In this document: one piece after another, positions 8,010 to 47,449 of the stretch
Numbering within the stretch: position 1 is the first letter of the stretch
Layout: each line of letters opens with the position of its first letter
Source of the DNA: Gammaproteobacteria bacterium
Lineage (GTDB): Bacteria > Pseudomonadota > Gammaproteobacteria > Ga0077536
Length of the DNA: 64,000 nucleotides
Direction of reading: 5' to 3'
Assembly (NCBI GenBank): GCA_963662545.2
Contig: CAXXLL010000002.1
Location: 1,856,001 to 1,920,000 of the forward strand
Position numbers and translations under genes: made by a program
Notes under the pieces: generated by a model
Databases searched by the model: none
The model's input: the letters and a program-made list of their open reading frames with translations, nothing else
What the model was told of the DNA's origin: nothing

Positions 8010-8067
8010 GTTTTCCGGTTCAAAATCAGAATATCGCCAACCGGGTGCTGAATAATCGCCGCAATAT

Positions 8068-8691
8068 TTACGCCGGTGGCGACACTCTGCCGCTACCGAG
8101 GCCAGCCCGGATCAGCCCGCTGATCCCCCGTGCGCGACGCTCGAACTCTTCGCGCTCGAACAGCCCGATGAACAGCGGCACGTCGAACAAGACGAAAGCA
8201 CTGTATACATCGCGCGCGGTTTCGATGACGTCGTCGACCTCAAATTCGCCGCTCTCTATTCCAGCACTTAATATTTCCGCTATAAGCGCATGATGTATAG
8301 AGATTTTATCGCGAATTAGACTGGGGCGATCACGCGCGATCGTGGCGACCAGTTCGCCGATTTTGGAAGCCGGATCCGCCATTTCGTAGGCGTGCTCAAT
8401 CATCGCAAGTGCGTAGGCAGTGAGCTTATCACCGGGCGACAGGCGCGAGTCGCGTGCCACCGCACGCAGGCGTTCGAGCCGCTCGGTCATACAACGTCCG
8501 GCGCATTCTGCGGCTATTTCCTGCTTGTTCGCGAAATATCGATACAAGTTTGCAGCAGACATGCCCACGTCTTCGGCGATTTCGGCCATGGTCGTCTTGT
8601 GGTAGCCATATTGCAGGAAACGAACCCGCGCAGCGTTCAGGATCTGCTCGCGCGCTAGGTGGGATGCTTCATGGCTGTGATCGTGGGTCAT
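8068..8691 (-). CDS. TetR/AcrR-family transcriptional regulator
   Basis: HTH GYHKTTMAEIAEDVGMSAANLYRYFANKQEI. Confidence 0.93.
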   Translation of the reverse strand: MTHDHSHEASHLAREQILNAARVRFLQYGYHKTTMAEIAEDVGMSAANLYRYFANKQEIAAECAGRCMTERLERLRAVARDSRLSPGDKLTAYALAMIEHAYEMADPASKIGELVATIARDRPSLIRDKISIHHALIAEILSAGIESGEFEVDDVIETARDVYSAFVLFDVPLFIGLFEREEFERRARGISGLIRAGLGSGRVSPPA

Positions 8692-8721
8692 TGTTGCGTC
8701 GCAATATTAACAGGCTGAATA

Positions 8722-8738
8722 CTAAATTTAAAATTTAG
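8722..8738. promoter_or_regulatory. Candidate TetR operator palindrome
   Basis: CTAAATTT-A-AAATTTAG perfect inverted repeat about 30 nt upstream of the tetR start. Confidence 0.5.
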
Positions 8739-8803
8739 ATTTAACCCTGGTCACGAATCGAGTCAGATCCCGCAATATTGCCTCATCGGAACCGCTGCTG
8801 CCT

Positions 8804-10474
8804 TCATTTACGCCGCCGACGCGCCGCGCGCTCGAATTCCGTTCGCAGCCGTTTCGCGATCGCGAACGCGGCCTGCGGCCGACCGGAATCCATCGCTTTA
8901 GCGGCTTTGTCCAACGCTGTTTTCACCCGTTTGCCACGCATGAGGTCGGGCCGGGACTGGAGCAAAGCGATGACCTCGGTCAATTCGCGATGGGCCGCAA
9001 TGGACTGTCGCGCGCGCTCGACAACGGTGTTTTTCGCGCCCTGTTCTATCGCTGCGTCGATCAACGCTTCCGCGGTGCCGTAGTCCCCGGCCACAACCGC
9101 CGTTTCGAATCTTGCTGCAAGATCGCGTTGCGAGCCAACAGGTTCGTCGACTGCGGGGTCCCGCGGGGACGGCAGTACGGGCACCTCCGCAACCGGTGGC
9201 TTGACGCCAGGTGCGGTGCTAGTGACGGCAGACGCTGGCTCCGGTACTTTTTCGACTTCGGACTCCACCGGTTCGTTTACGCTGCCGCTCGCGGATAGGT
9301 CCGGGAGGTCCTCGACGACGGCGGGGATAGTCTGAATTTCGGCGGTCGCGACCGTCGACGGCGGCGTAATGTCATCCGGATCATTTTTCTTTTTGTCTTC
9401 GCCCGCGAGCAAAAGGAAAACGACGGCGACAGCGAGCCATACCCGTTTGCGGCGATACCAGGATTTTTTCCTGGCCGGCGCCGGTGGCTCGGGCTCGTTC
9501 TGTGGCGACAGCCGAACAGTGTCGGCGACGACGGTCTCGACCTCGGCCGGATCCGCGAGCGGCGTTCGAATCTCGGCCACCGGCTGCTCGCCGCGCAGGG
9601 TCGCGCGCCAGGCCGCAATATTTTGCGGGCGCGCATCGCTGTGAAAACTCAAACCGGCATCAATTGCGACCAGCAGATTGGGCGAGTAGTCGCCGGAGGC
9701 CAGCTCGGAGCAACCAACCAGCGGGTCGCCTTCGTTTTCGAGAATGCCGCGGCCGCGATCGACCGCTGCCATCGGCGCAATCCCTGTCACGCAACGATAA
9801 GCAGTCGCCGCAAGCGCATAGATGTCTGTCCAGGGTCCTTGTTGTTTGCCATCCGACTGGTACTGTTCGAACGGCGCGTAGCCGGGTGAGACCAGGGTCG
9901 TCAGGGTCTGGGTGTGTTCGCTCAAGGCCTGTCTAGCCGAGCCAAAATCGATCAGCACGGCATGGCCATCATCACGCAGATAAATATTGGCCGGCTTGAT
10001 GTCGCGGTGAATGAAGCCGGCCTCATGGACCGTTTCAAGACCGTCCATGCAGGTGTCGATCACGGCCCGGACGCGCTCCTCTGGCAGCGTCTTTTTTTCC
10101 TTGAGTTCGGCACCCAAGGTTTGTCCGCGTTCGAAACGCATTACCAGATAGGCAGTGCCATGCGCTTCGAAGACCGACAAAACGCGCACGATTGCCGGAT
10201 GGTCGAAGCGCGCCAGGGTGCGCCCTTCACTGATGAAGCGTTCTAGCCCCCACCGGTAATCGGGCTCGTGGTCGGGCGTCAGCGGCAGCACCTGGTGATC
10301 GGGACCTCGCGTTGCAATCGAACCCGGCAGGTATTCCTTGATCGCAACTGCTTGTTCGAGATTCGTATCGAGCGCGAGGTAGGTGATCCCGAAGCCGCCG
10401 TGACCGAGCACTCGCGAGATCCGGTACCAGAGCAATTGGAAGTCCGCGGGGAGGGCGTTCGGGATCGCACTCAC
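8804..10474 (-). CDS. Membrane-anchored Hanks-type Ser/Thr protein kinase
   Basis: LGHGGFGITY, VAIKE, HRDIKPAN, DFG, YAPFEQ; one hydrophobic segment after RRKR; Pro-rich linker; GTG start. Confidence 0.92.
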   Translation of the reverse strand: MSAIPNALPADFQLLWYRISRVLGHGGFGITYLALDTNLEQAVAIKEYLPGSIATRGPDHQVLPLTPDHEPDYRWGLERFISEGRTLARFDHPAIVRVLSVFEAHGTAYLVMRFERGQTLGAELKEKKTLPEERVRAVIDTCMDGLETVHEAGFIHRDIKPANIYLRDDGHAVLIDFGSARQALSEHTQTLTTLVSPGYAPFEQYQSDGKQQGPWTDIYALAATAYRCVTGIAPMAAVDRGRGILENEGDPLVGCSELASGDYSPNLLVAIDAGLSFHSDARPQNIAAWRATLRGEQPVAEIRTPLADPAEVETVVADTVRLSPQNEPEPPAPARKKSWYRRKRVWLAVAVVFLLLAGEDKKKNDPDDITPPSTVATAEIQTIPAVVEDLPDLSASGSVNEPVESEVEKVPEPASAVTSTAPGVKPPVAEVPVLPSPRDPAVDEPVGSQRDLAARFETAVVAGDYGTAEALIDAAIEQGAKNTVVERARQSIAAHRELTEVIALLQSRPDLMRGKRVKTALDKAAKAMDSGRPQAAFAIAKRLRTEFERAARRRRK

Positions 10475-10737
10475 GTGCCTGGACCTCCGTTCAAAGCTGG
10501 CATCTGCGGCTGATGTTCGCGATGATTACGCCCTCTCGACGTCGCCATAAGGCGCCCGGCCGTCGCACGGCACCGGGCGGCGAAACACGGGCTCCACCCG
10601 TGTCGCTGAAGTTGAGCGCGGCAATGAACGATCCAGGGGGATCTATCCATCGACCGGGACGGGGATGTAGGGGAACAACGGGTTTCTCATCATTCTAATA
10701 ACGCTCGGATGGGTGTTTCGTTGACCAGGAGAAGGCA

Positions 10738-12390
10738 ATGACGAATTTACTCGAGCGCGGCTCCACCTACGAAGAAGTCTATAACAATTTCAAGTGGAAC
10801 ATTCCGCAACGTTACAACATCGCTGACGACGTTTGCGATCGATGGGCAGATGATACCGACCGCGTTGCGCTGATCTATGAAGATGCCGCCAAGAAGGTAC
10901 ACACCTATAACTTCGCGCAAATCCGTAAGTACGCGAACCAGCTTGCCAATACGCTGTGCTCGTACGGACTCCAGCGCGGCGATCGCGTCACCCTGCTGCT
11001 CGCGCAGGATCCCGAGTGCGCGTTCGCGCACGTCGCGTGCTGGAAAGCCGGCATGGTGTCCGGCCCGACTTCGGTACTGTTCGCCGGCGATGCCATCATC
11101 TATCGGTTGAACGACAGCGGCGCAAAGGTTTTGATTACGGATGCAGCAAACTATCCCAAGGTCGCAGAAGTGCGAGGAGAGTGCCCGAATCTCGAGCGCG
11201 TACTGGTTATAGACGGCGAACCCGAGGGTGCGGAAAATTTCTGGAAGGCGATCGAGGGCGCCGACGAGTCGTTCACGAACGTCGACACAGGCGCGGAAGA
11301 GGTCGCCTGGATCAGTTATACCTCGGGAACGACGGGTATGCCGAAGGGCTCGGTCCAGCCGCACCGGATGATGCTCGGCCACATGCCGAGCCTCGAATTC
11401 ATCTATGATTTTTTTCCGCAGGAAAACGACGCTTTGTGGTCGCCCGCCGACTGGGCGTGGATGGCAGGATTAATGGACGTCCTGATGCCTGGCTGGTTCC
11501 ACGGCTGCAAGGTCGTCGCGACTGCGATGAAAGGTTTCGATGCCGAAGACGCGTACCGCATCATGGCCGAGCACGAAGTGACGCTCGCGCTTTTGACGCC
11601 GACGATGCTGAAACTCATGCGGCAGGTGCCGGCACCCCTGGAGCGCCACGACCTCAAACTGAGGGCGGTGCTGTCGGGCGGCGAGTCAGTGGGTACCAGT
11701 CTGCTTGAATGGGCGGAGAAGGAACTCGGACTCAGCATCAACGAAGGCTTCGGCCAGACCGAATGCAACGTTATCCTCGGCAATAACGGCAAGGTCTTTC
11801 CCGTTAAGCCAGGCTCGCTGGGCAAGCCGACGCCGGGTTCCATCGTCGCTATCGTCGACGACGACGGCAAGGAGGTTCAGCCGGGGACCGAGGGACACAT
11901 CGCTTGCAAGCGACCTCATCCCGTCATGCTTCTCGAATACCTCAACAAACCGGACGCGACGCGCGAGAAATTCATCGATGACTGGTTGATCACGGGAGAC
12001 CTCGGACACATGGACGAGGATGGTTACTTTTGGTTTCACGGGCGTGGCGACGACGTCATTACGAGTTCCGGCTACCGTATTGGTCCGGGTGAGATCGAAG
12101 ACGCTCTCATCAAGCACGACGCCGTCCAGATGGTGGCCGTGATAGGCGTTCCCGATCCCGTGCGCACGGAGATCATCAAGGCCTTTATCATTCCAGTGGC
12201 AGGAGCAAAGGCAGATGACGGCCTGGCGGAAGAACTGCGGGACTTCGTGCGCACGCGGCTCGCCCGGCACGAGGTGCCGAAGCTGATTGAATTCGTCGAC
12301 AGCCTGCCGATGACGACGACGGGCAAGATCATGCGGCGCGAACTCAGGGAACGCGAAAAAACGCGTTTGGCGGCGCAGAGCATGGGCTGA
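10738..12390 (+). CDS. AMP-dependent acyl-CoA synthetase
   Basis: YTSGTTGMPKG, EGFGQTE, TGD, GRGDDVI, LPMTTTGKI. Confidence 0.93.
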   Translation: MTNLLERGSTYEEVYNNFKWNIPQRYNIADDVCDRWADDTDRVALIYEDAAKKVHTYNFAQIRKYANQLANTLCSYGLQRGDRVTLLLAQDPECAFAHVACWKAGMVSGPTSVLFAGDAIIYRLNDSGAKVLITDAANYPKVAEVRGECPNLERVLVIDGEPEGAENFWKAIEGADESFTNVDTGAEEVAWISYTSGTTGMPKGSVQPHRMMLGHMPSLEFIYDFFPQENDALWSPADWAWMAGLMDVLMPGWFHGCKVVATAMKGFDAEDAYRIMAEHEVTLALLTPTMLKLMRQVPAPLERHDLKLRAVLSGGESVGTSLLEWAEKELGLSINEGFGQTECNVILGNNGKVFPVKPGSLGKPTPGSIVAIVDDDGKEVQPGTEGHIACKRPHPVMLLEYLNKPDATREKFIDDWLITGDLGHMDEDGYFWFHGRGDDVITSSGYRIGPGEIEDALIKHDAVQMVAVIGVPDPVRTEIIKAFIIPVAGAKADDGLAEELRDFVRTRLARHEVPKLIEFVDSLPMTTTGKIMRRELREREKTRLAAQSMG

Positions 12391-12408
12391 ACCGCGGTCC
12401 GACGGCCT

Positions 12409-12630
12409 TTGATGCGCTATCGAATTAGGCCCTCCGGCACCGACATTCCGGCCCAGAACAGCATTGACTTCGTCACTTCGACGGTGTGGCTCACCCTTTT
12501 CGTCGGGATTGCATTGGTCGTGATGGGTTTTCACGGCCGTCAGCGTTGGCTGCAGTTCTGGGGCGGCCTGACCTGTCTGTGCTGCGCCGCTTATTTCCTG
12601 CGCGAGGTGTTCGGCTGGTTGCGAGTTTAG
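12409..12630 (+). CDS. Small hypothetical membrane protein
   Basis: 73 aa with two hydrophobic segments, 18 nt after the synthetase stop. Confidence 0.5.
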   Translation: MMRYRIRPSGTDIPAQNSIDFVTSTVWLTLFVGIALVVMGFHGRQRWLQFWGGLTCLCCAAYFLREVFGWLRV

Positions 12631-12688
12631 CGGTGAGGTCCGGGATTTAAATTTTACCTTTCACCATCTCGCGGTCGGGCGGCGACGC

Positions 12689-14481
12689 TTACTCGACGGC
12701 AAAAGCCCGGGCGAACACCGTCGGCTGGCCCTTGTACGCGCCCACGCGCGCTTCGGCGAACTGTTCGAAACCCGCGGCATGGCCGCCGTCCGATCCGAAC
12801 AAGAGGGCCCCTCGCAACCCTTTGTTGCGCTGCAGCCTTTCCTCGTGCGAGCTCGCCGCGAGGATATTGTCGGCGCGCCGCACATAAACGTAGCGTACCC
12901 AAGGGTAATCCCGTTTGAGTTCCGAGGGACTCAAAGCGAGCATCGTCTCGACCAGATCGATCTTAGCCAGGTGTTGTTCGGTCATGATGAAGTTATTGGC
13001 GATGATCGAGCAATCCGTATGGAAACGCAGGTAATGCCCGTCGTTGAAATCCGCGAGAACAACGCCCGGCTCGCGCTCGCATCGTTTCCCGAGTTCAAGA
13101 AACATCGGTCGTTGCAACAAGTATTCGAGATGTCCGCCAAGCGCTGGACTGTCGCCGAGATGATAAAGCCCGGGCCACATCGCGAGCGCCAGTGCCGCGA
13201 TCGAAAGAACCGACACCGCTATCCGGCGCGCCGGCGCTAACTGAAGTCGTAGGTGATCCGCACTGATGATCAGGGGCAGGTACAGCGCGAAGCTGCCGAA
13301 ATAGTGCAGCCGTTCCTGGGCAAGTAATAGCGCAAGCCACCGCAGGCGCCGAGGTCGAAGACGACCCGCGCCGGATCGCGCCCGCGCACGACGCCGTACA
13401 GACAACAGGCAAAAGTCACTGGCATTACAAGAAAAAAGCCCGAATACGCGGTGAGAAGCGCGCCCAACCCGCCGCTGAAAACCGATTTCAGCGGGCTCCG
13501 CACTTCGTTTATGGGGGCGAGATGGGCGAGGTTCGCCCCGACGAAATCGAACCCTTGCCTGACCTGCGCGATGTTCAACAGTAGCAAAGCGGCAATGGAC
13601 AGCAGCCACAGGGCATGGCGTGAGGGCAAGGCCCGCGTCGCGAGCAATACCGTCAGGGCGGTGAAGCTTGCAGCCGCGAGGTGAAACCAGGACAGGAGAT
13701 AGAAAGCGTAGCTGCCGGCGCGAAAGGGTTGGGACGGAATCAAGACCATCACGGTCGCAGCGAGCAATGCGATCGCGAAATGTCTCGAGGTGGTCGAGGG
13801 GACGGGTAGCTTGCGGAATGCCAGGATGGCCAGTCCGGCGATCAGGGGTGCCTGCAGTACGAACAGGCCGTTATGAAATGCGGGCGCCACGCCCAGCACG
13901 ATGCCCGTCGCGAGCGCTGCGGCGCGCGAGGTCTGGTTCTGCATCCATGTGATCGCCGTGATCAGAAATCCGAGGACGAAAGCGAATTCGACGAAATGGT
14001 GGTCGATACGCCCGACGGCATGCAGTGCCTGGGTAAGCGGGGACAGGGCGAAGCACGCGCCGCCCAGTATGGCGGCAAAATGTGAAGCGCCCAGCGCACG
14101 AACCAGTCCCAGCCATAAGGCGGCGGTCAGCAAGGTGGTATAGACGGGAATCAACACGAGCACCTGCATTGGATCGCGCGCGGGCGATAGCCCGTGGAAA
14201 GCGGCCACGATCCTTGCGCACAGCCAGTCGTACGCCCATGGCCAGGTCAACATGCTGCCTTCCGGCATGTGTATGCGAACGTCGAACTGGTAGAACCCGG
14301 TAGCGCCGATGGCGGCGTCCAGAATACGGCGCGCGTGGTAGAAGGCGTCGGGACCGACAGGAACGAAACTACCGTCCACCGACGAGGCCGGCATCCAGTT
14401 GAGGCCCGCTACCACTGCCGCCGTCCCGGTCAACAGCCAGATGAAAAACGATACGGTAAATCGCCGGTCGTCGAGCGTCAT
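12689..14481 (-). pseudogene. STT3/AglB-like membrane glycosyltransferase, copy 1, frameshifted near 13330-13345
   Basis: ORF 13270..14481 (PDAFYHARRI, TWPWAYD, GRIDHHFVE, INE) and ORF 12689..13609 (RLHYFG, VLADFNDGHYL, IIANNF) join into one protein collinear with 39274..41031 if one base is restored. Confidence 0.8.
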
Positions 14482-14547
14482 TTCACGGCGCCCTCGGGCA
14501 TATCGTGCCGTGGGTGACTGGGTGCGGCGGTCAGGTATGCCCGCCGG

Positions 14548-15312
14548 TTACGGTACCGTGAAGCCACCGTCGACGGGCATGGCGATACCGGTCACGAACG
14601 AAGATCGATCGGAGAGCAGCCAAACGACGGCTTCACCTATTTCCTGAGGCTCACCGATCCGTCCGATGGGCTGTTGATCGAGCAGGCTTTCCCGGGTGAT
14701 CCCCGTTTCCGCGATCATGCGTTCGACCATCGGCGTCTGGATGACGCCGGGGCAAACGGCGTTAACGCGGATGCGCTTACGCGCGTATTCGAGCGCCGCG
14801 CACTTGGTCAAGCCCACCACGCCGTGCTTGGCCGCGCAATAGGCGGAGCCGCCGCGCGTGCCGACCAAGCCTGCGACGGACGCGGTGCTGACGATGGCAC
14901 CGCCATTTTCCTGCAGGAGAAATCGTTCGATTTCATACTTCACACAAAGCCATACGGATTTCAAATCGATGTTGATGGTGCGATCGAACTCCCGCTCGGA
15001 CATCTTGACGATGCTCGTGAACTGTCCTTCTATGCCGGCGTTGTTGAATGCTCCGTCGAGACGGCCGTAAGCCTCGATCGTGGAAGCGATCATGCGCTTG
15101 ACTTGATCGGTTTCGGCGACATTGGTCTCGACGAACAGCGCGCGCCCGCCGTTCGCGTTGATTTCCTCGGCGACCGCCCGACCCGCTTCGACGTTGATGT
15201 CGGCGATGGTCAACGCCGCCCCTTCCTCGGCGCAGCGCAGCGCGCTGGCGCGACCGATGCCGGTGCTGCCGCCGGTCACGAGAATGACTTTGTCTTCGAG
15301 TAGAGCAGGCAT
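14548..15312 (-). CDS. SDR family oxidoreductase
   Basis: TGGSTGIG, NNAG, YCAAK, RVNAVCPG; ATG 15312 abuts the upstream stop. Confidence 0.93.
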   Translation of the reverse strand: MPALLEDKVILVTGGSTGIGRASALRCAEEGAALTIADINVEAGRAVAEEINANGGRALFVETNVAETDQVKRMIASTIEAYGRLDGAFNNAGIEGQFTSIVKMSEREFDRTINIDLKSVWLCVKYEIERFLLQENGGAIVSTASVAGLVGTRGGSAYCAAKHGVVGLTKCAALEYARKRIRVNAVCPGVIQTPMVERMIAETGITRESLLDQQPIGRIGEPQEIGEAVVWLLSDRSSFVTGIAMPVDGGFTVP

Positions 15313-28926: not shown

Positions 28927-30057
28927 ATGTATATCTGGGAAACCCAGGAATGGCCGGCTTTTACCTGGGATGAAAAGAGCGTATCCCGCCTGGTCGTGCA
29001 GGTCTCTCGGGAACAGGGCCGCCTGCTCGGAAAAATGGAAGCCCTGGGCTTCGAGCTGCGCAGCGAGGCCCAGCTCAGCACCCTGACACAGGACGTCGTC
29101 AAAACTAGCGAAATCGAAGGCGAGAAGCTCGATACCGCTCAGGTCAGGTCTTCGATCGCCAGGCGACTCGGCATGGATGTCGGCGGACTCGTCCCGGCGG
29201 ATCGCGATGTCGAAGGCGTGGTCGAGATGACGCTCGACGCCACGCGCAACTACGAGGAGCGTCTGACCGAAGCGCGACTGTTCGACTGGCACGCGGCACT
29301 ATTTCCGACCGGCCGAAGCGGCATGCGGAAAATCAATGTCGGAACCTGGCGAAAGGACAGCGACGGCCCGATGCAGGTTGTGTCCGGTGCTACGGGTCAG
29401 GAAAAGGTTCATTACGAGGCTCCGCCCGCTGCACGCGTACCGGATGAGATGACAGCGTTTCTAAACTGGATTGAGCAGCCGGGAGAAACCGAGCCGCTAC
29501 TCATCGCAGCGCTCGCGCATCTCTGGTTTGTGACCATACATCCGTTCGATGATGGCAACGGGCGCATTGCGCGCGCCATTGCCGATCTGGCGCTGTGCCG
29601 CTCTGAAAAAAGTGCACAGCGCTTTTACAGCATGTCGGCACAAATTAGCCGTGACCGTAACGATTATTACTCGACACTGGAATGGACTCAGAAAGCTACG
29701 CTCGATGTTACGGCTTGGCAGACATGGTTTCTGGAGTGTCTCCTACATGCGATCGACGGCGCTCAGGAAACCCTCGGCTCGATCCTAGGTAAAGCCCGCT
29801 TCTGGGAACGCTTCGCCAAAGAGCCCTTGAACGAGCGTCAAATCAAAGTGATGAACAGGCTACTGGACGGCTTCGAAGGCAAGCTCACGAGTTCGAAGTG
29901 GGCCAAGATCGCCAAATGCTCGCAAGACACGGCCCATCGCGACATCGTTGATCTCATCGACCGGGGTGCATTGAGAAAAGATCCCGGCGGCGGTCGCGCT
30001 ACCAGCTATTCCTTGGCGCCTCATCGTTTTCGCCAGCGGCCGGGGTCGACTTTGTAG
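28927..30057 (+). CDS. Fic family protein (DUF4172-type N-terminus, C-terminal HTH)
   Basis: MYIWETQEWPAF; HPFDDGNGRIAR Fic motif; C-terminal SSKWAKIAKCSQDTAHRDI. Confidence 0.93.
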   Translation: MYIWETQEWPAFTWDEKSVSRLVVQVSREQGRLLGKMEALGFELRSEAQLSTLTQDVVKTSEIEGEKLDTAQVRSSIARRLGMDVGGLVPADRDVEGVVEMTLDATRNYEERLTEARLFDWHAALFPTGRSGMRKINVGTWRKDSDGPMQVVSGATGQEKVHYEAPPAARVPDEMTAFLNWIEQPGETEPLLIAALAHLWFVTIHPFDDGNGRIARAIADLALCRSEKSAQRFYSMSAQISRDRNDYYSTLEWTQKATLDVTAWQTWFLECLLHAIDGAQETLGSILGKARFWERFAKEPLNERQIKVMNRLLDGFEGKLTSSKWAKIAKCSQDTAHRDIVDLIDRGALRKDPGGGRATSYSLAPHRFRQRPGSTL

Positions 30058-37898: not shown

Positions 37899-38078
37899 GC
37901 GCTTATAAGAAGGATAATCCGGCGACGATACCCAGGTAATTCGCCAAATTGGACGTAATTCACCAGTCGTAATGCACGCCTGCGACCAGCGGTGTTCGCG
38001 GCCCGCGGGCCCAATATCGGTCTGATCGAATATGATTCGCTGATGGCGACGTTCGAAATGTTCGACTAAAGCAGTCCA

Positions 38079-38444
38079 ATGGCCCACGACCAGCCCGACG
38101 TTCCCGAACTGATCGATACAGTACGCGAATTCCTGGACGGTATTTCAGCGAAGCTCGACGGACAGGATCGCTACCACGCCCTGTGTGCCGTCTATCTGCT
38201 CGAGATCGTCGAACGTGAACTCGCCGAGTGGCGCCGCGGTGAAACGGCCGACGACCGGCGCCTGCGCACGCTGGCCAAGCTCCCGGATGCGGCGGTGGAT
38301 TCACTCGCGGAACGCTTGAGCGCCGACATCCGCGCGGGGAAATTCGATGAAACGATGGACGAACTACTGGCTGCGCTGACCGAACACGTGGTTGCCAAGG
38401 TCAAGGTTTCCAGGCCTGCCTATCTCGATCCCGAGCATCGGTAA
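38079..38444 (+). CDS. DUF6285-like protein
   Basis: DQP...ELIDTVREFL...IVEREL...AKVKVSRPAY pattern. Confidence 0.72.
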   Translation: MAHDQPDVPELIDTVREFLDGISAKLDGQDRYHALCAVYLLEIVERELAEWRRGETADDRRLRTLAKLPDAAVDSLAERLSADIRAGKFDETMDELLAALTEHVVAKVKVSRPAYLDPEHR

Positions 38445-38487
38445 GTCGCCACTTCGCCAATGCCAAAACCTGAGACCTCGCACACGC

Positions 38488-39261
38488 ATGACTGACGAAA
38501 AAATTAAATTCTCCATCGCCGACGGCATCGCGCGCATCGTCCTCGACGATCCGGACAACCACAACGCCGTCGGTTCACGAATGACGCGTGAATTGGCGAG
38601 CGCGGCAATCGCCTGCGAGGCAGAGCCGGGCCTGCGCGCGGTGTTGCTGACGGCGACGGGCGAGCAATTTTCCGTCGGCGGCGATCTGAATGAATTCCTG
38701 CGTGAGCGCGATCACATCCGCGATCACATCCGCGAAATGGCGACTTATTTTCACCTCGCTATCACCGTGCTCAACCGGCTCGAAGCGCCGGTCGTCGCCG
38801 CGATCAATGGCATCGCCGCAGGTGGCGGTTTCAGCCTGGCGTGTATGTCCGATCTCGCCATCGCGAAACGCTCGGCGAAATTCAACCTGGCCTATACCCG
38901 CTCGGGGCTGACCCCGGATGGCGGTTCGTCGTGGTTTTTGCCGCGCCTGGTCGGTGCCCAGAAGGCGTTCGACATCATGGCGACCAACCCGACGCTTTCT
39001 GCTGAGAAGGCTTGCGAGCTCGGCTTGATCGCGCGCGTGGTGGATGACGACCGCTTCGAAGAGGAGGTCGAGGCGATTTTGCAGACGGTCGCGAACTCAC
39101 CGTCCAACGCGGTCGGCCGTGCAAAACGCCTGTTACGGGCAAGCCTCTGCAATTCACTCGAACAACAGTTGGAGCTCGAGTCGTATTCCGTCGCGTCGAT
39201 TGCCTCGAGCCCGGAAACGCTGAAAACCCTGGAAGCGTTTTTCGAACAGCGCAAGAAGTAG
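38488..39261 (+). CDS. Enoyl-CoA hydratase/isomerase (PaaG-like)
   Basis: FSVGGD, GIAAGGGFSLA, GLTPDGGSSWFLPRLVG; start at ATG 38488. Confidence 0.92.
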   Translation: MTDEKIKFSIADGIARIVLDDPDNHNAVGSRMTRELASAAIACEAEPGLRAVLLTATGEQFSVGGDLNEFLRERDHIRDHIREMATYFHLAITVLNRLEAPVVAAINGIAAGGGFSLACMSDLAIAKRSAKFNLAYTRSGLTPDGGSSWFLPRLVGAQKAFDIMATNPTLSAEKACELGLIARVVDDDRFEEEVEAILQTVANSPSNAVGRAKRLLRASLCNSLEQQLELESYSVASIASSPETLKTLEAFFEQRKK

Positions 39262-39273
39262 GCCTAGAACGGC

Positions 39274-41031
39274 ATGTCCCGCTCCATGCAATGGGTATTG
39301 TTATGGGCGTCGGCGAGCACCGTGGCCTGCTTATTCGCCCTGTCCTGGTTGCCCGCAGCGTTCGACGGCGACACCTACACGCCGATCGGCGCCGACTCGT
39401 TTTATCACGCGCGCCGAATTCTCGACACCGTCGCTGATCCGCATGCCTTTTATGAATTCGATACCGCGATTCATGCACCCGAAGGCAGCCTGCTAACCTG
39501 GCCGTGGGCCTACGATCGCATCGCGGCCGGGATCGTAGCCGGCGCGATGAAGCTCGGCGCGGCAGCGGACCCGATGGCCGTTCTCGTCTACCTCCCGGTT
39601 GCCATGGCGCCGGTCAGCGTCGGCCTGGTCATCGTCCTCGGATTGCTCAGCGGGCTCCCGCGCTGGGGTGTCGTCGCGCTGGCGTCGGCTTATGCGATTT
39701 CTCCCTTGACCCGCGAGCTTCACGCCGTGGGGCGTATAGACCACCACTTCGTCGAGCATTTTTTCTTTCTGGCGTCACTCTGCGCCGGCATGGCCTGGTT
39801 GAAAGCACCAAGCTCGGCGCGTGCCGTGGTGTTCGGCGCGGTGCTCGGCATCGCCCCCGGCTTTCACAACGGATTGTTCGTCCTGCAGGCCTTTCTCGGC
39901 GGCACCGTCGTCCTCTTGTGGCTGCGGGGACTACTCGAACTCCGCCAAACTGAATCATGGTTCGCTGCTGCGCTCGTCGTCTCATCGCTAGCCATACTCC
40001 TGCCATCGGAGCCGTTCCGCGCCTTCGAATGGGCGTTTTACTACCTGGGATGGTTTCACCTGCTGGCGGCGATTCTGAGCGCTACGCTGGTGTGCTGGCT
40101 TGCGCGCCGAGGACCGAACCGCTTCAATATCTTGCTGTTGACTGCGGTATCGATCGCCATCGGGTTCCTCGCCTGGAGCCAAATCGGCCACGGCGGGCGG
40201 TTCGTATTTGCCAACATGCCGGCGCTTAGCGACGTCACGGAATCGGCCAGCCTGATCGAGATCCTCGGGGCGGGGAGGGCGGCCTATCTCACGGAGCGCT
40301 ATACATTCATGATATGGCTTCTTCCGGTGATAACGCTCGGTCTTGCCCTCACCGCCATCCGCAGCCGGGCACCCGATCGCGTCCTGCTCACTGTTACGCT
40401 TCTCGGCGGCGGTTTTCTGATGCTGCAGCAATTGAGACTGCACTATTTCGGATACTTGGTGCTGATGCTGCCGCCGCTTCAATGGGCGGCGACGCGAAAG
40501 AAAACGCTGGCCGCGGCCGCTGGCGCAGCATTCCTCGCCGCGCAACTGCCTGCCGTCATGGATTTCGGCACCCATCCCGTACTTGCGGGCGATCGAAACT
40601 ATGCCGTCAATCGCGGCCTGATCCTTGAACTCGGCGAACGCTGCGCGGCTGATCCAGGCGTCGTCCTGGCGCGCTTTGGGGATGGACATTACCTGCGGTT
40701 TCACACGAACTGTGCCGTGATCGCCAACAACATGATCATGACCCGCCAGCACCTCGAGCGCATCGCGCTCACGGAAACCCTGTTCGATCTGGCGCCCGCC
40801 GTGCTACGCGCCACCTACCCCTGGATCGATTACGTTTATCTCTGGCGCCAGGACAACCCGCTGAATCGCGCGGACAGCGAGGCGAACGACCTGCATACGT
40901 CAGCGCTCGCGCGAGGCTTGCTGATGAATTCCTCCATGCCGGAGGGCTTTGAGCTGATCGGTGAAACCGCGTTGGAGTGGCCGGACGGCGAGCGCGTCAC
41001 CTTCGCGCGGGCTTTTCACATCTCGCACTGA
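39274..41031 (+). CDS. STT3/AglB-like membrane glycosyltransferase, copy 2 (intact)
   Basis: Many TM segments; ADSFYHARRI, PEG..LTWP, GRIDHHFVE, DVTE, RLHYFG, VLARFGDGHYL, VIANN. Confidence 0.78.
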   Translation: MSRSMQWVLLWASASTVACLFALSWLPAAFDGDTYTPIGADSFYHARRILDTVADPHAFYEFDTAIHAPEGSLLTWPWAYDRIAAGIVAGAMKLGAAADPMAVLVYLPVAMAPVSVGLVIVLGLLSGLPRWGVVALASAYAISPLTRELHAVGRIDHHFVEHFFFLASLCAGMAWLKAPSSARAVVFGAVLGIAPGFHNGLFVLQAFLGGTVVLLWLRGLLELRQTESWFAAALVVSSLAILLPSEPFRAFEWAFYYLGWFHLLAAILSATLVCWLARRGPNRFNILLLTAVSIAIGFLAWSQIGHGGRFVFANMPALSDVTESASLIEILGAGRAAYLTERYTFMIWLLPVITLGLALTAIRSRAPDRVLLTVTLLGGGFLMLQQLRLHYFGYLVLMLPPLQWAATRKKTLAAAAGAAFLAAQLPAVMDFGTHPVLAGDRNYAVNRGLILELGERCAADPGVVLARFGDGHYLRFHTNCAVIANNMIMTRQHLERIALTETLFDLAPAVLRATYPWIDYVYLWRQDNPLNRADSEANDLHTSALARGLLMNSSMPEGFELIGETALEWPDGERVTFARAFHISH

Positions 41032-41151
41032 AGTCTGGCAGCAGCGCTAGTTGTCTTCACGCGTGGACAAGCCATCGCGGATTCATTATCGTCCGGATCG
41101 ATACGCCGTAACCGGAGCGCGATTCGCCGATATCGCGCGCAGGAGGAAACC

Positions 41152-42366
41152 ATGGCGCACGTAATGACGACCGATGCTGCCGCCGAAACGTTTGCAAGCC
41201 CGAATGCGTTCGCGCTGAACGACGATCAACAGGCCATGTTCGACGAAGCGGATCGTTTTGCCAGAAACGAACTGTACCCGCTGGCCGAACGCATGGACAA
41301 CGAGGAATGGTGGCCCGAGGACATCTTCGAAAACATCGGTGAGATGGGGTATTTCGGTCTCACCGTGCCCGAAGAATACGGCGGACAGGGGCTGGATTTC
41401 TTTACCAGCGGCCTGGTTTCGCAAGCTTTCGGACGATGGAACCATGCCCTGGCTTTGAGTTGGGTCGCACATGAAAACCTCTGCCTGAATAATATTTACC
41501 GCAACGCCGACGAACACCTGCGTCACAAGTACCTGCCGAGTCTCTGTGCGGGTAAGTCCATCGGCGCGCTTGGCCTGACCGAACCGGGTGCCGGGTCGGA
41601 TGCCCTAGGCGCAATGGCGACGACCGCTCGGCGGGACGGCGATCGCTACATCCTCAACGGCCGCAAGATGTTCATCACCAACGGCCCGGTCGCCGACGTG
41701 CTGCTGGTGTATGCCAAGACCTCACCCGATAAAGGCCCCCATGGTATTTCGGCCTTCATCGTCGAAAAGGATTTCCCCGGCTTCAGCGTCGCCCAGAAAT
41801 TGACCAAGATGGGTTTTCGCGGCAGCCAGACCGGCGAGTTGCTGTTCGACGATTGCGAAGTGCCGGCGGAAAACCTCGTCGGTACCAAGGACGAAGGCGT
41901 GGCCGTAGTGATGAGCGGGCTCGATCTCGAACGCGCGGTGATCTCACCGATCTGCGTCGGCATGGCCGAGCGGGCGCTCGAGATCGCCATCGAGTACGCC
42001 AAGACGCGGGAACAGTTCGGCCGCCCTATCGCCGATTTCCAGATGATCCAGTCGAAGATCGCAGACATGTACGTGTGGGTCGAAGCGATGAAAGCGCTCA
42101 ATTTCAAGGTGCTGGCCGAGGCGAACGATCTCGAAATCGGCGGCGGTGGGCGTGGCATGGTTCACGCAAACACCGCAGCCTCGATCATGTATACGGCTAA
42201 CATGCTCAATCGCGTGCTCGACGAATCAGTACAGGTTCACGGCGGCATGGGTTACATCTGGGAATCAGAGATCAACCGCCTGTACCGTGGTAACAAGCTG
42301 TTGGAGATCGGCGCCGGCACCACCGAAATGCGGAAACTGATCATCAGCCGGGAATTGTTGAAATAG
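41152..42366 (+). CDS. Acyl-CoA dehydrogenase (isovaleryl-CoA DH-like)
   Basis: LGLTEPGAGSD, GRKMFITNGP, REQFGRPIADFQ, LEIGAGT. Confidence 0.93.
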   Translation: MAHVMTTDAAAETFASPNAFALNDDQQAMFDEADRFARNELYPLAERMDNEEWWPEDIFENIGEMGYFGLTVPEEYGGQGLDFFTSGLVSQAFGRWNHALALSWVAHENLCLNNIYRNADEHLRHKYLPSLCAGKSIGALGLTEPGAGSDALGAMATTARRDGDRYILNGRKMFITNGPVADVLLVYAKTSPDKGPHGISAFIVEKDFPGFSVAQKLTKMGFRGSQTGELLFDDCEVPAENLVGTKDEGVAVVMSGLDLERAVISPICVGMAERALEIAIEYAKTREQFGRPIADFQMIQSKIADMYVWVEAMKALNFKVLAEANDLEIGGGGRGMVHANTAASIMYTANMLNRVLDESVQVHGGMGYIWESEINRLYRGNKLLEIGAGTTEMRKLIISRELLK

Positions 42367-45003: not shown

Positions 45004-46343
45004 CTGAGGAATCCCCATAAAACCCCAACGAAATACAAAGCGATAGATTGATTTGTGGGTTCGTGGAACCTGCATGGCTCGAGTTGATCTCAGTTGTTGC
45101 AAGACAATCTGTGAACGACGAGGTGAGCCATGCAGGTATTGAAATTGTTACATGAAATGAGCAGCGAAGCGCTATACGGTGTGCATTTGGGTCGTCGACT
45201 CTCGGTTTGGGCGGCGGTCGGCGGTTTACTTCGGGGCCGACGTTTGTGGCTGACGCATATCGGTCGGAGCATAGACAGTGGCACGAGCGAGAAACACGCG
45301 ATTAAGCGCGTCGATCGCTTGCTGGGTAATCGTCAGCTCGGTGGTGAGCGTTTGCAGTGGTATCAATGGATAGCTCGGTTATTGGTATCGGACTGTGCGC
45401 ATCCGGTGGTGTTGGTGGATTGGTCTAATCTGGATCAACGTCAAGAGCTCTATGTATTGCGGGCGGCCTTAGCGGTCGGTGGTCGAGCCATCCCCGTGTA
45501 TGAAGAAGTCGAACACCATTACGCGAGTGTCAAAGCGGAGAAACGCTTTCTGAAGCGACTGAAGGCCATTCTGCCTGCGGGCTGTTGTCCGATCTTGGTC
45601 AGTGATGCAGGATTTCGGACGCCCTGGTTGAGTCTTGTGGCCTCAATGGGATGGTATTACGTGGGTCGCATCCGTCATCGTCACCTCGTGCGAGGTATGG
45701 ATGAGGCGGCATGGCATTCGAACAAAGTGCTCTACGGCCAAGCCAATGCTCGTCCGAAGTCACTGGGTCGTTTTTTGATCACGAAAAGTAATCCGCTGGA
45801 CACCCATTTATTCGTTTACAAAGGTAAGAAACGCGGGCGTGTCTGCTATACGGCTTACGGCAAACCGGCGCGGGCTCGCAATACCGAGAAACCGTCGGCA
45901 GCGGCGCGTGAGCCGTGGTTATTGGCCAGCAATCTGCCGGACAACCTTCGTAGTGCGCATCGGGTAGTTGCCGTGTATCGTCGCCGCATGCAGATTGAAG
46001 AGAGCTTCCGCGACATGAAGTCGCCCCGTTACGGCTTTGCACTTAGAGAAAACATGGGACGTGATCCCGAGAGAGTGGCGAACTTACTCTTGCTGTGCGC
46101 ATTGGCCACACTGGCCCAATGGTTGGTCGGCTTGGTCGGTTACCAAACAGGTTTAGTGAAAGGTTTACAGGCCAATACCGAAAGACGTAAGCCCGTCCTA
46201 TCCGTGGTATTCGTTGGTGCTCGCCTCATTGCCAAGCAACTTCAAATCCAGCGCTCAACTTTATTACAGGCGCTCCGGGATCTACAGGCACGCGCCATTG
46301 TGCAACTTGAATTTTGCTAGTCGAATTTGTGGGGATCCCTCAG
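45004..46343 (+). mobile_element. Complete IS4-family (IS10-like) insertion sequence, 1340 bp
   Basis: IRs CTGAGGAATCCCCATAAA / CTGAGGGATCCCCACAAA (16/18); 9-bp TSD CCTGACACC at 44995-45003 and 46344-46352. Confidence 0.95.
45130..46320 (+). CDS. IS4-family transposase
   Basis: KHAIKRVDRLLGN, LVDWS, SDAGF, EPWLL, YRRRMQIEESFRDMK (YREK motif). Confidence 0.95.
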   Translation: MQVLKLLHEMSSEALYGVHLGRRLSVWAAVGGLLRGRRLWLTHIGRSIDSGTSEKHAIKRVDRLLGNRQLGGERLQWYQWIARLLVSDCAHPVVLVDWSNLDQRQELYVLRAALAVGGRAIPVYEEVEHHYASVKAEKRFLKRLKAILPAGCCPILVSDAGFRTPWLSLVASMGWYYVGRIRHRHLVRGMDEAAWHSNKVLYGQANARPKSLGRFLITKSNPLDTHLFVYKGKKRGRVCYTAYGKPARARNTEKPSAAAREPWLLASNLPDNLRSAHRVVAVYRRRMQIEESFRDMKSPRYGFALRENMGRDPERVANLLLLCALATLAQWLVGLVGYQTGLVKGLQANTERRKPVLSVVFVGARLIAKQLQIQRSTLLQALRDLQARAIVQLEFC

Positions 46344-46352
46344 CCTGACACC

Positions 46353-46520
46353 TTTTTTCCTGCAGCCAAAGTCGAGCACCGTCTGGCCCGACTCTATCGC
46401 AAGCTTCGCGATGGTACGGCGGCGCACCATAAGGGTGGGCAGTGTGACGATGAGGTCGTACCAGGGCGCGTCGAAGCGATACTTCCTCCTCACGCGCTGG
46501 ATTTTTTCTTGGTCAGTCAT
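46353..46520 (-). pseudogene. Truncated class I SAM-dependent methyltransferase (N-terminal fragment)
   Basis: MTDQEKIQ...YDLIV...RRRTIAKL.IESGQTVLDFGC ends in motif I at the palindrome/IS; no continuation found on the other side. Confidence 0.65.
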
Positions 46521-46714
46521 ATGTGTCCCGGCGGTGCCGGCTCGGCCACTGTATACCGCAACCTTCCGGATCCAAACCCGGGTGCGGAGCCTCGAGATCG
46601 GTAATATTTCCGGTTTTCCGATGCACGCAGTTGCGTCGAATGCTGGCCGCACCCATCATTTCACGATTAAATGGGATCTGACGCCAGCAGGTCTTCGTTG
46701 GGGGGGAAACTAAT

Positions 46715-47449
46715 ATGAAGAACTTAACCCGAACAGTATTCGTATTGCTGGCGTGCGCGGCACTTCTCTGGACGACGAATGCGTTTGCGACGATCCAAAG
46801 CACCTTCGATCTGACCGGCGAGGGTTGGAGGGACCTTACTTATTCGAATCCCGGTGTATTTATATCGGATAATGGCCTCGCCAATTTTGACGCGCTTTTC
46901 GGTAACCCTGCTGGTTCGGTTGATACGACGGATCCCGGTGGCACTGTAGCGGCGCGATTCGGCGCACCCGCTGGGTACTTAGGTAATAAATCCGGGTTTA
47001 TCGGCGGCTCGATTACGTTCCAACTCATTATCAAGGCCATGCCAGGCGTTATCTCTCTTCCCGCCGTGCCGGGTGTTGTCGCCTTTGAGAATTCAGCCAT
47101 GAATCGAGGAATCGGCTACACCGGTCCGTTGCCAAATGCCGCTACATGGACCACGTACACAGCCCAGCTTTCGCCTAATGGATTGCTGAATCCGCTTCTG
47201 GTTGGTTACTGGGGCGCGTTCGACCTGGACGATCCGACCGGGACGGCGTCGCAGGCTATGCCTATTGACTTCACTAACGTGTTGGGAAATGTCACCCGGT
47301 TGACTATCAATGGCGAAGTCACCGACGGGACCGACGACACGATCGCGCTCGATAATGTCCATCTCGTGATTCCAATCCCGGCCGCATTGCCGCTGATGGC
47401 TTCCGCACTGTTCGGATTAGGATTCGCCGCGCGTCGACGTCTAGGCTAA
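46715..47449 (+). CDS. Secreted VPLPA-CTERM (exosortase-target) protein with a laminin-B-like domain
   Basis: Signal peptide; FD...EGW, AP.GYLGNKS...GG.ITF, VLGNVTRLTI.GE, LDNV; C-terminal IPIPAALPLMASALFGLGFAARRR. Confidence 0.85.
   Translation: MKNLTRTVFVLLACAALLWTTNAFATIQSTFDLTGEGWRDLTYSNPGVFISDNGLANFDALFGNPAGSVDTTDPGGTVAARFGAPAGYLGNKSGFIGGSITFQLIIKAMPGVISLPAVPGVVAFENSAMNRGIGYTGPLPNAATWTTYTAQLSPNGLLNPLLVGYWGAFDLDDPTGTASQAMPIDFTNVLGNVTRLTINGEVTDGTDDTIALDNVHLVIPIPAALPLMASALFGLGFAARRRLG

Follow-up and report, generated by a model that had tools for sequence, protein, structure and literature searches.

An STT3/AglB-like glycosyltransferase family of Gammaproteobacteria that lacks the WWD motif and may modify pilins

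The W1 gene and the motifs of its product

The 64,000-nucleotide stretch of gammaproteobacterial DNA analyzed here, hereafter the window, carries at 39274..41031 on the + strand an ATG-initiated open reading frame (ORF) of 585 aa, whose predicted product is a GT-C glycosyltransferase with the fold of the oligosaccharyltransferases (OSTs) AglB and STT3. We refer to the gene family as S, to its intact and second copies in the window as W1 and W2, and to the genome that holds the window as G000. To our knowledge, STT3, AglB and PglB are defined by WWDYG-based recognition of the N-X-S/T sequon, and the bacterial enzymes are thought to be confined to the pgl systems of delta- and epsilonproteobacteria. 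An earlier note, made from the letters of this DNA, had described in W1 a series of motifs in OST order with WWDYG replaced by FGDGH and had proposed a distinct subfamily that no longer reads the sequon. The ORF and the quoted motifs are present, in order and at the expected places, and their coordinates were rechecked.

The W1 protein consists of a transmembrane (TM) domain (approximately residues 1 to 435) and a periplasmic C-terminal domain (approximately residues 436 to 585). Its signature segments lie at residues 37 to 50 (PIGADSFYHARRIL), 63 to 78 (DTAIHAPEGSLLTWPW), 153 to 161 (GRIDHHFVE), 320 to 324 (DVTES), 386 to 393 (QLRLHYFG) and 463 to 487 (VVLARFGDGHYLRFHTNCAVIANNM). Residue numbers are those of W1 throughout, and conservation was counted over 310 distinct family members. 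D41 (39394..39396, + strand, as are all W1 features), the first-loop catalytic Asp within G-A-D-S-F-Y-H-A-R-R, is kept in 308/310 and aligns with the D of the AglB motif DPWYxxR. The second metal-binding motif, D156-H157-H158-F-V-E161 (39739..39756), corresponds to DHHxAE in AglB; D156, H157 and H158 are each found in 309 members and E161 in all 310. E323, within the TIXE-type motif D-V-T-E-S of external loop 5 (40240..40242; 307/310), aligns with TVxEA, and R388 in Q-L-R-L-H-Y-F-G (40435..40437; 309/310) with the Arg of QxRxxYY. Kept in 307 to 310 members and aligned to verified AglB motifs, these residues make the motifs singled out in the earlier note meaningful. The equivalents of D41 and E323 in PglB and AglB presumably position the carboxamide of the acceptor.

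The divergent part of the protein is the pocket for the acceptor. In PglB and AglB structures, WWD binds the +2 Ser/Thr of N-X-S/T. A profile-profile alignment of the S family with reference AglBs (described below) places V464-L-A-R467-F468-G469-D470-G471-H472 on V-M-S-W-W-D-Y-G-H, so that R467-F468-G469-D470-G471-H472 (40672..40689) is the equivalent of W-W-D-Y-G-H and the register proposed earlier was off by one. Only G471 (303/310) and H472 (276/310) are conserved among these columns. Position 467 is mostly D (152/310), with Trp in one member; position 468 varies among N, S, H and P, F being present in 16 members and Trp in three; position 469, the D of WWD, is D in 130 and N in 116 (together 246/310) and G in W1; and position 470 is D in 128 and A in 85. 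The F-x-DGH substitution is not, as had been supposed, conserved in the family, with both F and D variable. WWD occurs nowhere in any of the 310 proteins. The columns are flanked by a near-invariant Cys pair, C457 and C480 (40642..40713; 309/310 each), which probably forms a periplasmic disulfide, and R475 is likewise near-invariant. Judged from these alignments, the S family keeps the OST catalytic core intact but has lost the Trp-Trp portion of the Ser/Thr pocket. The loss of WWD thus bears out one half of the sequon-blind enzyme of the earlier note; as for the other half, we infer that S enzymes neither need nor read the sequon.

Fold, kinship and range of the S family

The W1 protein matches nothing in Pfam at an E value of ≤1, and so neither PF02516 nor AglB_core. 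In NCBIfam its sole match is TIGR04154, the archaeal STT3 subfamily (residues 29 to 392; E value of 1e-12, 47.3 bits against a cutoff of 450), and the 40 scanned members of the family alignment (A1) all matched this model alone. PDB sequences gave no relevant match to the W1 protein (phmmer) or to the A1 profile (hmmsearch). The kinship of W1 is therefore visible solely through the fold, TIGR04154 and profile-profile comparison. An AlphaFold2 model built on A1 (predicted local distance difference test [pLDDT], 94.1; predicted template modeling score [pTM], 0.93) retrieved Archaeoglobus fulgidus AglB (7e9s_A) first in Foldseek, with an E value of 3e-14 and a query-normalized template modeling score (TMq) of 0.74, followed by yeast and human STT3, PglB, DPY19, AftD and ArnT. 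VIA-align superposed 556 of the 585 residues on 7e9s_A with a Z score of 33.2 and a root mean square deviation of 3.0. Because this match runs over model residues 1 to 585 (chain residues 7 to 778), the C-terminal domain belongs to it. The corresponding Z scores were approximately 31 for STT3, 23 for PglB and 22 for DPY19, and approximately 20 for protein O-mannosyltransferases (PMTs), these over the TM part only.

Reference AglBs were collected by scanning metagenome contigs with a back-translated WWDYGH pattern, which yielded 49 complete ORFs of ≥550 aa; 37 of typical AglB size were retained (A2), and 12 were dropped for atypical length or motif position. Pfam recognized STT3 in 36, AglB_core-like in 33 and AglB_L1 in 29 of the 37. 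Comparison of A1 with A2 by hhalign gave a probability of 99.2% and an E value of 3e-19 over 450 columns (W1 residues 28 to 486).

Predicted structure and alignments together show W1 to be an STT3/AglB-type GT-C with full OST architecture, i.e., a polytopic GT-C domain and a periplasmic core domain, along with the first-loop Asp, the second motif and the Glu of external loop 5. Profile and structure comparison thus confirm the assignment made in the earlier note. The S family appears to work like, and to descend from, the AglB/STT3 lineage, yet it lacks the WWDYG feature (the W1 columns read R-F-G-D-G) and falls below the curated thresholds of PF02516 and TIGR04154. AglB (A. fulgidus AglB-L, 7e9s/3waj; TIGR04154; Pfam STT3 plus AglB_core) is both the best whole-length structural match of W1 and its only curated family match, and the catalytic motifs of the two align. 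S enzymes differ from it in the absence of WWD, in a C-terminal domain of approximately 150 aa (the AglB enzyme has 868 aa), in their bacterial hosts and in the presence of GtrA in the gene cassette described below. Campylobacter PglB (3rce, 5ogl, 6gxc) is, like S, a single-subunit bacterial enzyme of the same fold with a periplasmic active site, but it is structurally further from W1 than AglB and STT3 are and has WWDYG and a pgl cluster for oligosaccharide assembly.

The family is large. At least 695 relatives reached an E value of ≤1e-3 among 7999 scored candidates, and an exhaustive search of representatives at 50% identity returned 523 at this threshold, 336 at 1e-10 and 195 at 1e-30. A precomputed Pfam domain is lacking in all of the 120 homologs listed, nearly every one of which is called hypothetical; six carry the JGI label Stt3. 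The proposal of a distinct subfamily is well supported by these numbers and by the lack of a PDB sequence match. With one genome taken per species, 118 stretches encode an S relative. The best 80 of these (76 loci), which form our neighborhood survey, come from Steroidobacteraceae, Woeseiaceae and unclassified gammaproteobacterial metagenome-assembled genomes (MAGs). Isolates carrying S are Steroidobacter gossypii, Peristeroidobacter soli, P. agariperforans and Lentisalinibacter sediminis. A few S-bearing MAGs are labeled Cellulomonas, Pirellulaceae, Nitrosomonas or Klebsiella, which may reflect binning errors. Close to G000 the gene is patchy, occurring in 6 of 24 other genomes of the same family and in none of 16 sampled from other families of the class. 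No homologs of greater length (1113 to 3175 aa) were found, which is weak evidence against fused forms of S. On these sequence and model comparisons, S is an extensive gammaproteobacterial branch of the AglB/STT3 lineage that has gone unannotated.

A feature search of the ESM Atlas, to be taken as a lead only, placed W1 among unnamed Pseudomonadota clusters (28 of the 30 nearest). Further off, and again as a lead only, it returned clusters of approximately 590 aa from Acidobacteriota and phages with STT3/AglB_core. At rank 29 stood a 585-aa cluster (AglB_core-like, 97%; STT3, 90%), in which viruses (Uroviricota) make up 53% of the members with a recorded taxon; this suggests that short AglB-like enzymes are borne by phages. 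Another dark bacterial GT-C family close to the STT3/PglB clusters is "component 27" (Nature 2023, PMC10584680), which that source describes as YfhO-like in InterPro, with a median length of 665 aa and a TM score of approximately 0.6 to STT3/PglB. Going by this description, we rejected its identity with S, which has no YfhO or other Pfam match and resembles AglB with a TMq of 0.74 and a Z score of 33. Searches of the main text of Creative Commons-licensed PMC papers and of bioRxiv turned up no account of the S family, nor of STT3/AglB-fold enzymes in bacterial pil loci or three-component cassettes.

Genomic partners of S and the proposed system

Gene neighborhoods were charted by clustering the ORFs of the 76 loci and searching all six-frame ORFs with hidden Markov models of the clusters. 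In the relatives of W1, S is the last gene of a recurrent co-oriented cassette that also encodes a GT2 glycosyltransferase (Glycos_transf_2), a membrane protein of approximately 140 aa and a class I SAM methyltransferase (MT; Methyltransf_23/11); PilA, PilB, PilC, PilD, PilR, PilS and CoaE were likewise assigned by Pfam. The small membrane protein is GtrA (GtrA_DPMS_TM, PF04138) in all four tested cases, with E values from 1e-17 to 6e-22. The partner GT2 ends, as read from its sequence, in two hydrophobic helices, and all its nearest matches are polyprenyl-phosphate sugar synthases. AglJ (TIGR04182) is the best curated match in 40 of 46, at full length and with a best E value of 7e-64, and the Pyrococcus dolichyl phosphate (Dol-P) mannose synthase 5mlz is the only PDB sequence match. 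AglJ and 5mlz are thus the closest known kin of the partner GT2, whose sequence shows TM helices at its C terminus; the lipid, by contrast, would be undecaprenyl phosphate (Und-P) rather than Dol-P. A haloarchaeal Dol-P hexose transferase model was matched by 40/46 GT2s and ArnC/PgfS-type models by 7/46 (loci L009, L010, L014, L016, L033, L035 and L036). Since these seven are of ArnC/PgfS rather than AglJ type, the sugar supplied by the cassette may vary between lineages.

Within 5 kb of 80 full-length S genes (70 loci), a GT2 gene was found for 53, a GtrA-like gene for 40, an MT gene for 30, pilA for 33 and any pil gene for 34; 66 have GT2/GtrA or pil genes in this range. Restricting the count to the 48 S genes flanked on either side by at least 5 kb gave 38 with GT2, 25 with GtrA, 23 with MT and 22 with pilA; either kind of partner accompanies 43, and neither kind accompanies five. 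In many Steroidobacteraceae the order is pilS-pilR-GT2-gtrA-MT-S-(S)-pilA-(pilA)-pilB-pilC-pilD-coaE; the isolates S. gossypii (L007) and P. soli (L018) have the complete pilR-GT2-gtrA-MT-S-pilA series. Elsewhere S lies between pilD and coaE (L023), divergent from pilA (L028) or, as MT-GT2-S, between divergent pilA and pilR (L039), and in L045 MT stands ahead of GT2. Together with the L006 type, at least five distinct arrangements of the pil locus hold S, and for 20 S genes the pilA start follows downstream at a distance of no more than 300 bp. The pilin-neighborhood check suggested in the earlier note is therefore positive in the relatives and not at W1. Two full-length S paralogs stand in tandem in the pil loci L007, L009 (8178-9974 and 9974-11782), L011, L016, L019 and L022. 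Tandem-S loci of Steroidobacteraceae often have two pilA genes, a combination that hints at paired enzyme-pilin specificities. In two further genomes, G001 (a congener of G000) and G009 (a member of the same family), a GT2-MT fusion of approximately 660 aa (N-terminal GT2, C-terminal class I MT) is encoded directly upstream of an intact S gene (L212:10766-12739, - strand; L211:6937-8925, + strand), which argues independently for a shared pathway of GT2, MT and S.

Three clades were resolved by a FastTree phylogeny built from 81 DNA-derived sequences and five database proteins (86 in all). Clade A (36 rows, support of 97) has 33 members in pil loci, and clade B (36 rows, support of 84) has 29 with GT2. 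Clade C (14 rows, support of 80) includes W1, its ortholog at locus L004 and P0012, which stands in for the W2 pseudogene. Clade C is mostly orphan, with GT2 near two of the nine members that have DNA context. Its exceptions are L027, with GT2 directly downstream of S; L063, with a PMT_2 GT-C directly upstream; and L033, where S lies among three PMT_2 GT-Cs, MT and GT2. The intact S genes of G001 and G009 that follow a GT2-MT fusion count among these exceptions too.

Among 17 pilins encoded 220 to 260 bp downstream of S, 13 contain at least one N-x-S/T and four contain none. Two features are each characteristic of a single pilin subgroup: a recurrent N-R-T around residue 60 and, in the C-terminal disulfide loop, a segment rich in Thr. 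An ordinary N-linking OST of PglB or AglB type, which would transfer an oligosaccharide from undecaprenyl diphosphate to the Asn of N-X-S/T and be too diverged for Pfam, would explain the sequons in those 13 pilins, the prevalence of D or N at position 469, the whole-length AglB fold and the retention of all catalytic residues. We nevertheless hold this to be very unlikely: WWD is absent from every member, with Trp almost never at either of its two positions; W1 gives no PF02516 match, nor does any gene of G000, by a search that was positive in four control archaea; none of the examined copies adjoins pgl-like genes for oligosaccharide assembly, the family having in their stead a monosaccharide-type cassette of Und-P-sugar synthase and GtrA; and four S-adjacent pilins have no sequon at all.

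We consider it fairly probable that S enzymes are instead periplasmic, Und-P-sugar-dependent and sequon-independent protein glycosyltransferases, with pilin as the probable substrate, and that W1 is an orphan member with, likely, the same chemistry. In this scheme, GT2 would load a hexose onto Und-P at the cytoplasmic face, the MT may modify the resulting Und-P-hexose, and the GtrA-family protein, a putative flippase, would flip the Und-P-sugar. On the periplasmic side, S would then attach the sugar to a protein, with no need for N-X-S/T. An Und-P-sugar donor would be in keeping with the monophosphate-linked donors of euryarchaeal AglBs. For clade A, gene position and the analogy with tfpO and tfpW make the major pilin the most probable acceptor. 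For W1, the same chemistry would be expected with a donor made elsewhere, for which the AglJ-like GT2 encoded next to pilA on contig C3 of G000 is a candidate source.

The scheme follows the logic of three-component systems, as set out in PMC11127046, with a transferase of the AglB lineage. Those systems (GtrB, GtrA and a GT-C such as GtrC, ArnT, YfhO or GT136) share with the S relatives an adjacent, co-oriented cassette. They differ from S, whose GT-C has the AglB/STT3 fold, whose cassette has an MT as a regular fourth member and whose acceptor is probably a protein. GT2 and GtrA are adjacent at the level of the family, and neither is found at W1 or forms such a cassette in G000. The term "STT3" occurs zero times in the text of PMC11127046. 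A second likeness is to the pilin glycosyltransferases of Pseudomonas aeruginosa, where tfpW and tfpO (pilO) lie beside pilA and TfpW is a GT-C-type enzyme with a lipid-linked monosaccharide donor, according to 10.1101/2020.04.19.049825. Clade A S genes are likewise membrane glycosyltransferase genes next to pilA, but they lie upstream of it, between pilR and pilA, and are accompanied by their own donor-synthesis genes, and S has no Pfam match. W1 lacks this adjacency, the pilA of G000 being on contig C3.

A rival reading of the same cassette is that S is the GT-C of a three-component system acting on a non-protein acceptor (O-antigen, capsule, lipid A or a periplasmic glucan), like GtrC, ArnT and YfhO, that its AglB fold reflects nothing more than ancestry, and that its position in pil loci is an accessory slot gained by hitchhiking. 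GT2, GtrA and a GT-C together are the hallmark of glycan-modifying systems (PMC11127046); moreover, clades B and C lie mostly outside pil loci, some of the GT2s resemble ArnC/PgfS, and orphan copies such as W1 sit among unrelated metabolic genes. We judge this reading unlikely. S retains the OST-specific C-terminal domain and the strand-turn-helix that bears WWDYG, with its near-invariant G-H, R475 and two Cys. D41 and E323 are also both kept, and we take their role to be at the acceptor carboxamide. Furthermore, the S genes immediately upstream of pilA occur in several locus architectures, and tfpO and tfpW are pilA-adjacent too, as described in 10.1101/2020.04.19.049825.

Several observations weigh against protein glycosylation by S as proposed here. 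Classical three-component systems modify glycans or teichoic acids, not proteins (PMC11127046). The AglJ match of the GT2, at approximately 210 bits, stays below the equivalog cutoff of 325. Through D or N at position 469, part of the Ser/Thr pocket may survive in the relatives of W1, and the alignment with AglB ends at N486, with the DK/MI region beyond it. No Asn, Ser or Thr column is conserved across all 17 S-adjacent pilins. The pil association is concentrated in clade A and therefore reflects few independent events. At the locus itself, no sugar-pathway genes, GT2 included, adjoin W1, and W2 has no sugar-pathway neighbors either, as judged by Pfam in the window flanks. G000 (5.58 Mb in three contigs, 96.85% complete) has no match to PF04138, for which 8 of 14 control genomes were positive, and no ortholog of the GT2-MT fusion was found in it. 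Its pilA is adjoined by PMT-like GT-C/tetratricopeptide repeat (TPR) proteins, not by S.

Taken further, and as a doubtful extension that we would not yet back, the proposal would have an archaeal-type core of AglJ-like and AglB-like enzymes persist in Gammaproteobacteria as a four-gene, GtrA-dependent and pilus-wired cassette with an MT. Its AglB-derived enzyme would have abandoned N-X-S/T and would add a single, possibly methylated hexose from Und-P to pilin at a novel type of site. If true, no STT3-lineage enzyme before S would have been seen to act as a monosaccharide transferase within a three-component system. Pilin glycosylation would then have three independent solutions, S joining the TfpO/PglL and TfpW types, and orphan paralogs such as W1 would extend the cassette chemistry to other envelope proteins. 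The family would widen the scope of the STT3 lineage, serve as a natural experiment in the coding of acceptor specificity and add a route of pilin modification in the abundant soil and sediment bacteria of Steroidobacteraceae and Woeseiaceae. S enzymes would also provide sequon-independent transferases for glycoengineering, and the cultured carriers make the hypothesis directly testable. On the whole, the idea of a sequon-blind STT3-like enzyme put forward in the earlier note has gained real support from comparative genomics; its observations were largely right and its interpretation partly so, and its motif detail was wrong.

W1 and W2 in their own genome

W1 is the least informative member of its family, and W1 and W2 are the only S copies in G000. 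The best AglJ-like GT2 of this genome scores 110 bits and is encoded on contig C3 beside the pil locus, where pilS-pilR-pilA is followed by the genes of two proteins of approximately 630 aa, P0260 and P0261, and then by the divergent GT2 gene (L080, G000:C3:1090001-1106000; ORFs at 8060-9952, 9930-11825 and 11899-12414, all on the - strand, and 7005-7940 on the + strand). P0260 belongs to no Pfam family and has at least 3399 relatives among 8000 scored, which are mostly unnamed, with some called protein O-mannosyltransferase or TPR protein. Its model (pLDDT, 90.5) gave weak, mixed Foldseek matches. In VIA-align, the GT-C domain (residues 1 to approximately 430) reached Z scores of 18.9 to Pmt1/2 and Pmt4, 18.5 to STT3 and 17.6 to ArnT, and the C-terminal half was TPR-like, with Z scores of 9 to 10. 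P0260, P0261 and the GT2 are thus a candidate second, different pilin-glycosylation module. That the pilA-adjacent slot of G000 is filled by another GT-C supports a pilin-modifying role for the enzymes of such slots, and W1 is left without an obvious acceptor.

The congener G001 has a syntenic W1-type copy in three pieces (L213:8715-12131), broken by a DDE_Tnp_1_4 transposase (L213:10287-11600, - strand) and frameshifts, with luciferase-like and Meth_synt_2 genes upstream; S paralogs thus turn over in the genus, being gained and lost quickly. W2 fared no better. It spans 12689..14481 on the - strand and is split into an ORF of 403 aa (13270..14481) and one of 306 aa (12689..13609), which overlap and differ in frame; the whole-genome search returned it as two adjoining matches. 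Its intact ortholog P0012, of 597 aa and 95 to 97% identical, reveals one base missing near 13333 and a frameshift between residues 383 and 387. Four runs, each of a different study, gave contigs that extend unbroken across 12600-14600 and have zero indels relative to the window; one of these runs is a possible source of the assembly, and a T>C difference at 12667 in two of the four contigs indicates that they do not all represent the same data. Because the frameshift is present in contigs of four studies, W2 is a genuine pseudogene. The earlier note had read it as a single ORF and had argued from two diverged paralogs sharing F-x-DGH, an argument that falls, one of the two being a pseudogene and F and D being variable.

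It is highly improbable, even so, that W1 is a functionless remnant of a lost system on its way to the fate of W2. The pseudogene itself, the broken ortholog in the congener, the absence of GtrA and of the cassette from G000 and the patchy occurrence of the gene would all be expected of a remnant. Compared with its 92%-identical ortholog at L004, however, W1 has a ratio of nonsynonymous to synonymous substitution rates (dN/dS) of 0.186 over 585 codons (dS of 0.20), low in both the TM part (0.176) and the C-terminal domain (0.229); the value for the neighboring acyl-CoA dehydrogenase is 0.054. All near-invariant residues are present, and the frame is open and identical in runs of at least four studies. 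By these sequence measures, W1 is intact and maintained under purifying selection, as the proposed role in protein glycosylation would have it.

The flanks of W1 and W2 in the window encode, by Pfam, enoyl-CoA hydratase, acyl-CoA dehydrogenases, short-chain dehydrogenases/reductases and an AMP-binding enzyme, in agreement with the earlier description of CoA and redox genes, and no sugar-pathway genes, around both copies. The enoyl-CoA hydratase gene (ECH_1; 38392..39261, + strand) ends 12 nucleotides ahead of the W1 start and is a neighbor only. It is absent at L004, where Meth_synt_2 precedes S, and we therefore regard the acyl-CoA context of W1 as incidental. A scan of 37900-41300 for promoters and terminators gave counts equal to the shuffle expectation.

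Other features of the window include an ORF for a DDE_Tnp_1 transposase at 45130-46320 (+ strand), approximately 4 kb downstream of W1, and behind it two ORFs without a Pfam family (46327-46713 and 46715-47449). A Fic/DOC protein with an N-terminal DUF4172 is encoded at 28927-30057 (+ strand), and a eukaryotic-type Ser/Thr protein kinase (Pkinase) of 556 aa at 8804-10474 (- strand), close to the W2 pseudogene. Runs of at least four studies, with four different organism labels, contain the segment 38300-42400 at full identity, and metagenomes from sponges and seawater contain part of it (0.2 to 0.34 of its words). The bacterium may be host associated or widespread in marine samples.

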